Virus record (IMG/VR): IMGVR_UViG_2671180411_000011
DNA: 4,525 bases
Reading direction: 5' to 3' (one strand)
DNA from: a virus
Taxonomy: Duplodnaviria; Heunggongvirae; Uroviricota; Caudoviricetes
Position numbers and translations under genes: made by a program. Under the pieces are notes generated by a model that did not search any database, was not told where the DNA came from, and saw only the letters and a list, made by a program, of their open reading frames with translations. Shown in pieces: positions 161 to 733 of the stretch (its first letter is position 1; every line of letters begins with the position of its first letter).

Positions 161-181
161 TGTAACGCTCGCGGCGTTACA
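161..181. repeat. Dyad-symmetric site TGTAACGC-N5-GCGTTACA (iteron-like)
   Basis: Exact 8-bp inverted arms at 161..168 and 174..181 around a 5-bp spacer TCGCG. Confidence 0.6.
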
Positions 182-370
182 AAAAGTGCAATAGATCGCA
201 TCACTTTTATGTCTGGTTTTGCTGATGCGTTAATTCAGGTTGGATGGCTGGTCGAAAATGACGGAGGGCTTTCTCTACCTAACTTTGAACGTCATAACGG
301 AAAAAGCTCTAAAAAAAACGGGCGGTTACAAACGAGCGAGTAACAAAAATACGCGAACTGAAACGAAAAG

Positions 371-389
371 GTAACGCTGCCAGCGTTAC
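371..389. repeat. Second copy of the same dyad site, GTAACGC-N5-GCGTTAC (iteron-like)
   Basis: Arms 371..377 and 383..389 are identical to the arms at 161..181; inner bases also pair (GTAACGCTG c CAGCGTTAC). Further half-site copies: AGCGTTAC at 405..412, near-copy GCGGTTACA at 322..330, GTAAC at 338..342. Confidence 0.6.
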
Positions 390-414
390 ACAAACGGATC
401 AAAAAGCGTTACCA

Positions 415-432
415 GAGGAAGAGGAAGAGGAA
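415..432. repeat. Tandem hexanucleotide repeat (GAGGAA)x3 encoding an acidic EEEEEE linker
   Basis: Three perfect consecutive GAGGAA units at 415..432 followed by GA; read in frame 1 as a Glu run. Confidence 0.8.
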
Positions 433-733
433 GATCTAAATACTGATCTCCCCCTCGCCAAAAACGAGCGTCTAAAAAATTCGAGCCGGAGGCTATTGAG
501 CTGCCCGATTGGTTGCCGGAAACACTCTGGCATGAGTGGGTCCGGTTCAGACAGGCATTGCGAAAACCGATTCGAACGGAGCAGGGCGCTAACGGGGCGA
601 TACGGGAACTGGAAAAATTCCGTCAGCAGGGTTTTACACCTGAGCAGGTGATTCGACACAGCATCGCCAATGAATACCAGGGCCTGTTCGCGCCGAAAGG
701 TGTTCGGCCTGAGACGTTGCTCCGACAGGTTAA

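Follow-up and report, generated by a model that had tools for sequence, protein, structure and literature searches.

The origin of phage lambda lies within its initiator gene O, in the stretch that codes the linker between the two domains of the protein, and is built from dyad-symmetric binding sites of about 18-19 bp with a purine- and A-rich tract directly after them. In the Bacillus phage SPP1, the replisome organiser also binds an origin in its own gene, oriL inside gene 38, where the boxes are followed by an AT-rich segment. The initiators of the iteron plasmids pPS10, F, P1 and pSC101 are winged-helix proteins, whose dimers autoregulate on inverted repeats and for which half-site-like direct repeats serve for initiation. 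The Rac prophage has been reported to have an active origin, oriJ (PMC3945230). Here, we analysed a stretch of 4,525 nucleotides from a virus of the Caudoviricetes (IMG/VR record IMGVR_UViG_2671180411_000011), called the window below, in which two copies of a 19-bp dyad lie inside a gene that sequence comparison assigns to the replication initiators at the ydaU position, in the replication module of a Rac-like prophage. We consider it probable that these dyads are the cognate binding sites of the initiator and that, with an adjacent polypurine, low-GC tract, they make up a phage origin that lies, as in lambda, within the gene of its initiator. The initial annotation of this DNA had proposed such a lambda-like candidate origin, and the comparative evidence supports it strongly, the origin function itself staying a prediction.

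The window contains exactly two copies of the dyad GTAACGC-N5-GCGTTAC, both free of mismatches (162-180 and 371-389), against 0.01 copies expected by chance in 200 shuffles, and the identical arms and the distance of 209 bp between centres that had been noticed earlier were confirmed. In intact genes the centres of dyads A and B are 207 bp apart and both are read in the same frame, giving the peptides CNARGVT (A) and GNAASVT (B); the different reading frames previously ascribed to the two copies turned out to be an artefact of the A8 frameshift described below. Extra half-sites had been listed at 405..412, 322..330 and 338..342. The first of them is genuine (an exact GCGTTAC at 406-412), whereas the two others are only half-site-like, the element at 338-345 reading GTTAC in close relatives and a good GCGTTACA in several Enterobacterales relatives. 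The degenerate half-site at 150..156 reads GTAACGC in 666R9, Rac442 and other Enterobacterales. Two features had gone unnoticed, the polypurine tract at 414-434 and a third dyad upstream of the ATG in intact relatives. This third dyad, TGTAACGCTGCGAGCGTTACA, lies in non-coding DNA 12 nt upstream of the start codon, where it adjoins the ribosome-binding site; it is found at -32 to -44 in the Rac-like clade, and most clades are without it. Five GATC (Dam) sites, at 131, 194, 397, 433 and 445, also fall in about 320 bp around the dyads, where about 1.5 are expected; the pair at 433-448 is common to the K-12 allele, and the excess may point to Dam/SeqA control of an origin. The coordinates of the features are collected in Table 1.

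Table 1 Coordinates of the initiator region and neighbouring features in the window
Feature	Position	Strand	Remarks
End of IS600 (IS3 family)	1 to ~109-120		Multi-copy match annotated as IS600 transposase region
Initiator gene remnant	105..733	+	PHROG 2509 type; N-domain without Pfam family; pseudogene
Degenerate left half-site GTAATGC	150..156		12 bp upstream of dyad A
Dyad A, TGTAACGC-TCGCG-GCGTTACA	161..181		Within the codons for a winged-helix domain loop, peptide CNARGVT
A8 run, frameshift lesion	311..318	+	A6 in intact genes
Weak half-site-like elements GCGGTTACA and GAGTAACA	322-330; 338-345		From comparison with relatives
Dyad B, GTAACGC-TGCCA-GCGTTACA	371..390		In the region coding the disordered inter-domain linker
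Extra right half-site GCGTTACC	406..413		Exact GCGTTAC at 406-412; family-wide, directly before the polypurine tract
Polypurine tract AGAGGAAGAGGAAGAGGAAGA, 21 nt	414..434	+	Counterpart of (GAGAA)n in most relatives; candidate DNA-unwinding element
AT-rich GATC-TAAATACT-GATC	433..448		Homology with the K-12 Rac ydaU allele resumes here
Remnant of CCCCC-TAAA-CCCCC motif	449..459		One repeat unit (10 bp) lost in the window
3' part of ydaV, DnaC/IstB-like helicase-loader partner	997..1503	+	Pfam IstB_IS21, E 9.4e-19; annotation in relatives

We, then, compared the dyads across the family. Homologues were collected with the N-terminal 135 residues of the initiator as query, from 12 annotated phages, from one-genome-per-species contigs (80 loci, spanning Enterobacterales, Pseudomonas, Burkholderiales, Xanthomonadales, Planctomycetes and Verrucomicrobia) and from IMG/VR (80 loci), to give about 160 homologous loci overall. 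An exactly repeated 6+6 dyad was present in 60 of at most 90 initiator regions (90 loci were listed, and a few with incomplete flanks were skipped), compared to 4/80 upstream and 0/82 downstream control regions and 0 in shuffles, and most of the remaining loci carry versions with one mismatch. A chance origin of the dyads is ruled out by the 0.01 copies expected and by the rarity of repeated dyads in the control regions. The two sites also keep their place: dyad A falls at gene offsets ~136-172 in nearly all homologues, with exactly repeated dyads at ~148-160, and dyad B at ~345-393, and these positions are kept in homologues down to ~30-45% protein identity. Among the distinct IMG/VR loci, dyad A was found in 67/67 and dyad B in 65/67. 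The half-site 6-mers are essentially limited to gene positions -50 to 0, 100-200 and 300-450, and the three complete phage genomes 666R9, TL-2011b and CBW1004C-Prop1 have no full dyad at any place other than within or next to the initiator gene. Alignment of the homologues, which had been proposed as a check, showed the dyads conserved beyond coding constraint at the same two gene positions.

The dyads might also be a by-product of a repeated peptide, xNAxxVT, without any function at the DNA level. In intact Rac-type genes, the two copies do share a reading frame and both encode NAxxVT, and the proteins have a conserved motif, GNAxxV(T/S)K, where dyad A lies. However, one copy is non-coding, and the frame in which dyad B is read varies, being frame 1 in 43 loci, frame 2 in 12 and frame 0 in 11, where the palindrome codes VTxxAL instead of xNAxxVT. 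Synonymous codons at dyad A are fixed as well: GGT is used for Gly in 62/62 cases, compared to a share of 34% in the rest of these genes, GTT for Val in 53/58 and AAC for Asn in 53/54. Where His CAC replaces Asn AAC, as it does in four loci, the valine codon is in every case (4/4) the synonymous GTG and not GTT, which restores a palindrome, GTCACGC..GCGTGAC. Because of the non-coding copy, the varied frames, the forced codons and this compensatory synonymous change, we attribute the conservation to selection on the DNA and not on the peptide. The DNA-level signal claimed in the initial annotation therefore stands, on grounds other than those first given. A repeated-peptide by-product is ruled out by the non-coding copy, the other frames and the synonymous compensation, and with chance counted in, an explanation without DNA function keeps practically no probability. 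The comparison indicates that the dyads are real, deeply conserved DNA-level signals.

Sequence variation in the dyads followed the same pattern. Across 33 distinct E. coli sequences, essentially no variation was seen in the arms of the three dyads, while the 5-nt spacers vary. Other arm types, GTCACG, GTTGCG and GTCCGC, are altered on both arms and at both sites together, and these variants and GTAACGC track the protein clades. In the distant GTCCGC clade, the upstream site is displaced to offset 65 (peptide SALKAD), 279-288 bp upstream of site B, which suggests selection for a second, distant site as such.

Arms that co-vary with their complementarity kept would also be expected of hairpins in the mRNA, acting in stability, translation control or antisense termination, and on the minus strand dyad B (L001 4265-4283; window 371-389) followed by the T-rich CTTTTCGTTT scores as intrinsic-terminator-like. 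This single terminator-like element compares, however, with 0.9 expected by chance, and the mismatches in imperfect dyads (104 positions) comprise 5 of G-U type, 13 of A-C type and 86 others. An identical arm at all sites of a genome, with loops that vary, and flanking direct half-site repeats that are unable to pair do not fit RNA hairpins either. A search of Rfam gave no match in window 1-733. A structured RNA element was rejected on the few G-U mismatches, the variable spacers and the lack of an Rfam match, and we regard mRNA hairpins as a most improbable explanation.

Around dyad B, a fixed layout was found family-wide. The full dyad is preceded by 1-4 direct left half-sites (GTAACGn) with a period of ~12 bp; on its 3' side come 5-6 nt, the right half-site GCGTTACC, at once a polypurine tract, and then a short AT-rich piece, often followed by CCCCC..TAA..CCCCC. 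The dyad and its half-sites occupy gene offsets ~330-415, corresponding to 371-390 and 406-413 in the window. The sites had been described as dispersed and not tandem, which holds for the full dyads, about 200 bp apart, but not for dyad B, which stands in a tandem half-site cluster of ~12 bp period throughout the family. The polypurine tract is mostly (GAGAA)n in the family and (GAGGAA)3 in the E. coli allele. A run of at least 12 purines is present at the tract in 76/89 loci versus 36/1105 control segments (3%), and the GC content there is 18-22 points under the locus mean over ~40 bp, the sole such dip within +/-400 bp. In 43 high-GC loci, the ratio of the Arg codons AGA:AGG is 87:0 in the tract versus 28:67 elsewhere; this contrast is the only codon evidence used for the tract, since the way in which the tracts are picked already forces purine-only codons, which makes an argument from them circular. 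From the AGA:AGG contrast it follows that the tract is selected for A-richness or for the repeat itself. The polypurine, low-GC tract downstream of dyad B is more likely to be the unwinding element than the stretch between the dyads, where an A-rich tract with its A8 run had been put forward as an origin element. That proposal did not survive the comparison: the A8 run is a frameshift lesion, six A long in intact genes, and the A-rich stretch around it consists of the codons of a conserved basic segment in which K104, R106 and R112 are invariant.

Two further observations concern the DNA just downstream of the tract. The CCCCC-TAA(A)-CCCCC motif is found there in L001 (~4345-4370), in many clades and in the K-12 allele, often followed by GGGGG (peptide PPxPPxGG). 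A common initiator variant of 376 residues (429-member cluster; P0013 and others; L111 1955-2320) carries an in-frame insertion of ~114 residues directly after the GATC/AT-rich piece; this insertion gave no Pfam match.

From these comparisons we infer the binding of the initiator, the melting of the tract, the firing of the origin and the roles of dyad A and of the upstream dyad (site 0) as follows. Dimers of the N-terminal winged-helix domain would bind each 19-bp site, whose ideal form is GTAACGCT-N3-AGCGTTAC. The cluster formed by dyad B and its flanking half-sites (371-413) would nucleate an initiator oligomer beside the polypurine/AT tract (414-448), which would then melt, and the C-terminal domain would recruit the DnaC/IstB-like loader YdaV together with the host DnaB. 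Dyad A, ~200 bp upstream, and the dyad before the start codon in intact phages may act as auxiliary anchors, either for looping or wrapping of the DNA or as an autoregulatory roadblock.

The main rival to an embedded origin is that the dyads bind the initiator, or another phage protein, for gene regulation only, as an autoregulatory operator or roadblock and maybe with looping, the true origin lying elsewhere. Palindromes suit dimers, like the operators at which the Rep dimers of iteron plasmids autorepress, the dyad beside the ribosome-binding site in the Rac-like clade is well placed for such a role, and a site spacing of ~190-210 bp is as in looping operators. However, no sigma-70-like promoter that overlaps the upstream site was found in L001 3700-4500, the initiator gene being probably transcribed from an upstream early promoter, and this site is absent from most clades. 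A conserved half-site array followed by a polypurine, low-GC tract is unexpected for a plain operator; its position equals those of the lambda ori and of the repeat cluster of K-12 Rac, and a scan of the three whole genomes for the dyad motif showed no further repeat cluster. A role in regulation only seems unlikely to us, and regulatory and origin roles are not mutually exclusive.

In the same way, we considered operators of another protein, either the winged helix-turn-helix DUF977 protein, YdaT or a host factor. The DUF977 gene lies 1.1 kb downstream of the dyads in the window (1518-1940), and had been named as the alternative in the initial annotation, and YdaT accompanies the clade with the upstream site. 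Yet TL-2011b and CBW1004C-Prop1 have both dyads and neither DUF977 nor YdaT, and within +/-1.5 kb DUF977 is encoded in 2/92 loci and YdaT in 9/92. Operators for DUF977 or YdaT were rejected on the evidence of phages that keep the dyads without either gene. A host factor is disfavoured, the distribution of the motif being the opposite of what it predicts: the same motif is found across very different hosts, and different motifs are found within a host genus (Klebsiella L004 versus L008; Pseudomonas L087 and L090 versus the other Pseudomonas loci). Taken together, operators of another protein are very improbable.

Several points weigh against our preferred explanation, an origin embedded at the dyads. 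The link of the dyads to binding or initiation comes from sequence comparison, and the sites lie inside the initiator gene, so that their co-inheritance with the N-domain is trivial. The distance between A and B varies over 189-237 bp without helical phasing. Cluster B of the E. coli allele counts only one full dyad and one exact half-site, far below the four iterons of lambda, and the tract of this allele is only moderately AT-rich (~45% GC) with a weak GC dip. The tract also encodes a charged linker and may be under some protein-level constraint. The correlation of basic-arm residues (T109/V113 equivalents) with dyad type is imperfect, with L060 and L063 as exceptions, and was not used as evidence. 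Finally, the primers used for 'oriJ' in PMC3945230 amplify a 155-bp piece of ydaV and not of ydaU; because these primers lie in ydaV, the accessible literature leaves oriJ undefined at the sequence level.

Among the described systems, the locus resembles the lambda ori. It shares with it the place within the initiator gene, where the inter-domain linker is coded, the dyad-symmetric sites of similar length and the purine- and A-rich tract directly after them. The lambda RefSeq record has four annotated ori iterons at O-gene offsets 348-432, then ACAAAAGAAAAAAGAAAAGA, which is nearly the same gene offset as that of cluster B (~330-415). The order initiator, DnaC-like loader, Ren-like protein (DUF977 = PHROG 142) is that of lambda O-P-ren, and, as in lambdoid O/ori, alleles exchange the N-domain together with its sites as one module and retain the C-domain and partner gene. 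Of the traits that define lambdoid origins, a two-domain initiator, sites in the linker-coding part, an adjacent low-stability tract and co-variation of sites and N-domain were all found here, but four or so tandem full iterons were found neither in the window nor in the E. coli allele. Where lambda has four tandem full iterons, the cluster here has one full dyad with half-sites, and one or two more full dyads are located ~200 bp upstream, one of them inside the part coding the DNA-binding domain. The partner is a DnaC/IstB-type ATPase and not lambda P, the N-domain of the initiator has no detectable sequence similarity to O, and the tract is a G+A pentamer/hexamer repeat and not plain A+T-rich. 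The likeness to SPP1 oriL is one of architecture: that system is Gram-positive, has different boxes and has a second origin, oriR. The iteron plasmids differ in that their origins lie outside the rep gene.

The ydaU gene of K-12 Rac has the same genomic position, C-terminal domain, ydaV partner and place of the repeat cluster as the window allele, and differs in its N-domain and in its repeats. The two alleles share only the C-terminal 119 residues, at 85% identity. The N-domain of K-12 YdaU is DUF1376 (PF07120, 2.7e-26); membership of the window initiator in the DUF1376/K-12 YdaU family was ruled out, the intact window allele having no DUF1376 and only its C-terminal 119 residues aligning. 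In its linker-coding part (L176 1972-2078), K-12 ydaU carries five direct copies and one inverted copy of ATGTTCAAACA, at the same gene place as cluster B, and homology between the two alleles resumes at GAAGATCTAAA, right after the purine tract. We read the difference between the K-12 and window alleles as a module exchange of the kind known from lambdoid O/ori, and the ATGTTCAAACA repeats as a candidate oriJ sequence. No functional study of an origin was found in the literature on YdaU, and the exact motifs were not found in the literature searched, apart from the Drosophila AAGAG satellite.

The architecture differs from that of lambda in its dispersed full palindromes, its half-site repeats and its G+A pentamer tract, and is conserved over a remarkable phylogenetic range. 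A bolder reading, which we put forward tentatively and hold to be possible but doubtful, takes it as a distinct type of origin, found in prophages from Enterobacterales to Planctomycetes. Here a near-invariant 19-bp palindrome, present in two to three copies spaced ~200 bp apart, one of them in the coding sequence of the DNA-binding domain, would work with a (GAGAA)n unwinding element; the sites would wrap or loop ~400 bp around an initiator oligomer instead of forming a compact lambda-type O-some, and the DNA code would dictate parts of the protein. If this were true, those parts would be the GNAxxVT loop, a 4-codon insertion, in Enterobacterales, by which a half-site is gained, and the EKRRE/EEEE linker.

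The initiator has two domains joined by a flexible linker: the N-terminal one is a DNA-binding domain, and the C-terminal one is tied to the partner that loads the helicase. It matched the PHROG 'replication initiation protein' with an E of 3.9e-89, and 1203 proteins belong to the family at E <= 1e-5. The intact allele showed no Pfam match at E<=0.01, and a profile search of the N-domain against PDB sequences found nothing (best E 0.34). The 'O-like' PHROG 678 matches only residues 102-236, and the C-terminal domain is common to K-12 YdaU and to O-like and 'primosomal' phage proteins. In PLSDB, only 2 phage-like records carry the N-domain, a Pusillimonas record, which is a circular phage genome, and one of 52 kb from E. 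coli; they are uninformative on an autonomous replicon. The last 19 residues of the intact initiator (..PDSAIPPGFRG; L001 4630-4683, masked in the window) match the C-terminal end of DnaT (NCBIfam NF002770 positions 161-179, E 0.006). This DnaT-like tail is common to several initiator clades, and it may serve to dock components of the host primosome or helicase.

For this large initiator family, to which Pfam assigns no family, the dyads and the tract offer a concrete candidate origin and cognate site. Its members are found in Rac-like prophages of E. coli and Shigella, in podoviruses of the epsilon15/TL-2011b type and in many prophages of Pseudomonas, Burkholderiales, Xanthomonas and Planctomycetes. 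The gene is also an unusually clean case of overlapping codes, a DNA palindrome and a pentamer repeat constraining the codons, and even the residues, of the protein that presumably binds them.

In the window itself, the initiator gene is 97-98% identical to intact genes for 262 residues and carries three lesions, a 5' truncation, a +2 frameshift and a 10-bp deletion. Its homology to intact ydaU-position genes starts at ~105, next to the end of an IS600 element that is 95-99% identical to many copies in E. coli, Shigella-like genomes and Stx2a phages; the IS600 junction explains both the loss of the 5' part of the gene and that of site 0. The frameshift at the A8 run leads to a stop at 341-343, and 10 bp (TCCCCCTAAA) are deleted after ~450 relative to intact genes. 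The gene named as initiator in the initial annotation does belong to an initiator family, but because of the truncation, the frameshift and the 10-bp loss we classify it as a pseudogene. With its initiator gene dead and site 0 lost, the system of the window cannot work in cis, and the probable origin of the window is a relic that a related prophage could at most fire in trans. For annotation, this means that intact-looking origin sites persist in dead prophages and that related phages could fire such sites in trans.

The gene order of the module, from BLAST against E. coli genomes and phages and from the annotation of three relatives, is repressor, cro-like, ydaT, 'ydaU', ydaV (DnaC-like), ydaW and DUF977. 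In the window, a run of 263 N at 734-996 hides the end of the initiator gene together with the first part of ydaV; its counterpart in L001 measures 295 bp, which indicates either that the length of the run was not preserved or that there is a further deletion. The ydaW gene, located between ydaV and DUF977 in relatives, is missing in the window and likewise in L016 and L017 (Shigella flexneri and E. coli ECMA0423). The region 1518-2354 encodes the DUF977 winged helix-turn-helix protein (PHROG 142, 'Ren-like exclusion protein') and then a zinc-ribbon protein (PHROG 1621, function unknown). A prophage-borne homologue of the epoxyqueuosine reductase QueH is encoded at 2502-3188 (Pfam E 1.9e-65) and may have an auxiliary role in the modification of tRNA or DNA. 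It is followed by a type I toxin-antitoxin locus of the hok/sok type at 3246-3571, with the sok RNA at 3246-3421 (Rfam RF01794, 117 bits) and a Hok-like open reading frame ending at 3571. A different dyad, TTACCT-N3-AGGTAA (ATTACC-N5-GGTAAT in SPN1S), was observed in repeated copies between genes of uetakevirus-type loci, close to the gene of the repressor and upstream of that of the DUF1064 protein, at positions 3117/3179 in L005, 118/3173 in L006, 813/3097/3159 in L007 and 52/793/2356 in L010. They probably serve as operators of the repressor or as terminators and have no relation to the dyads of the initiator gene.

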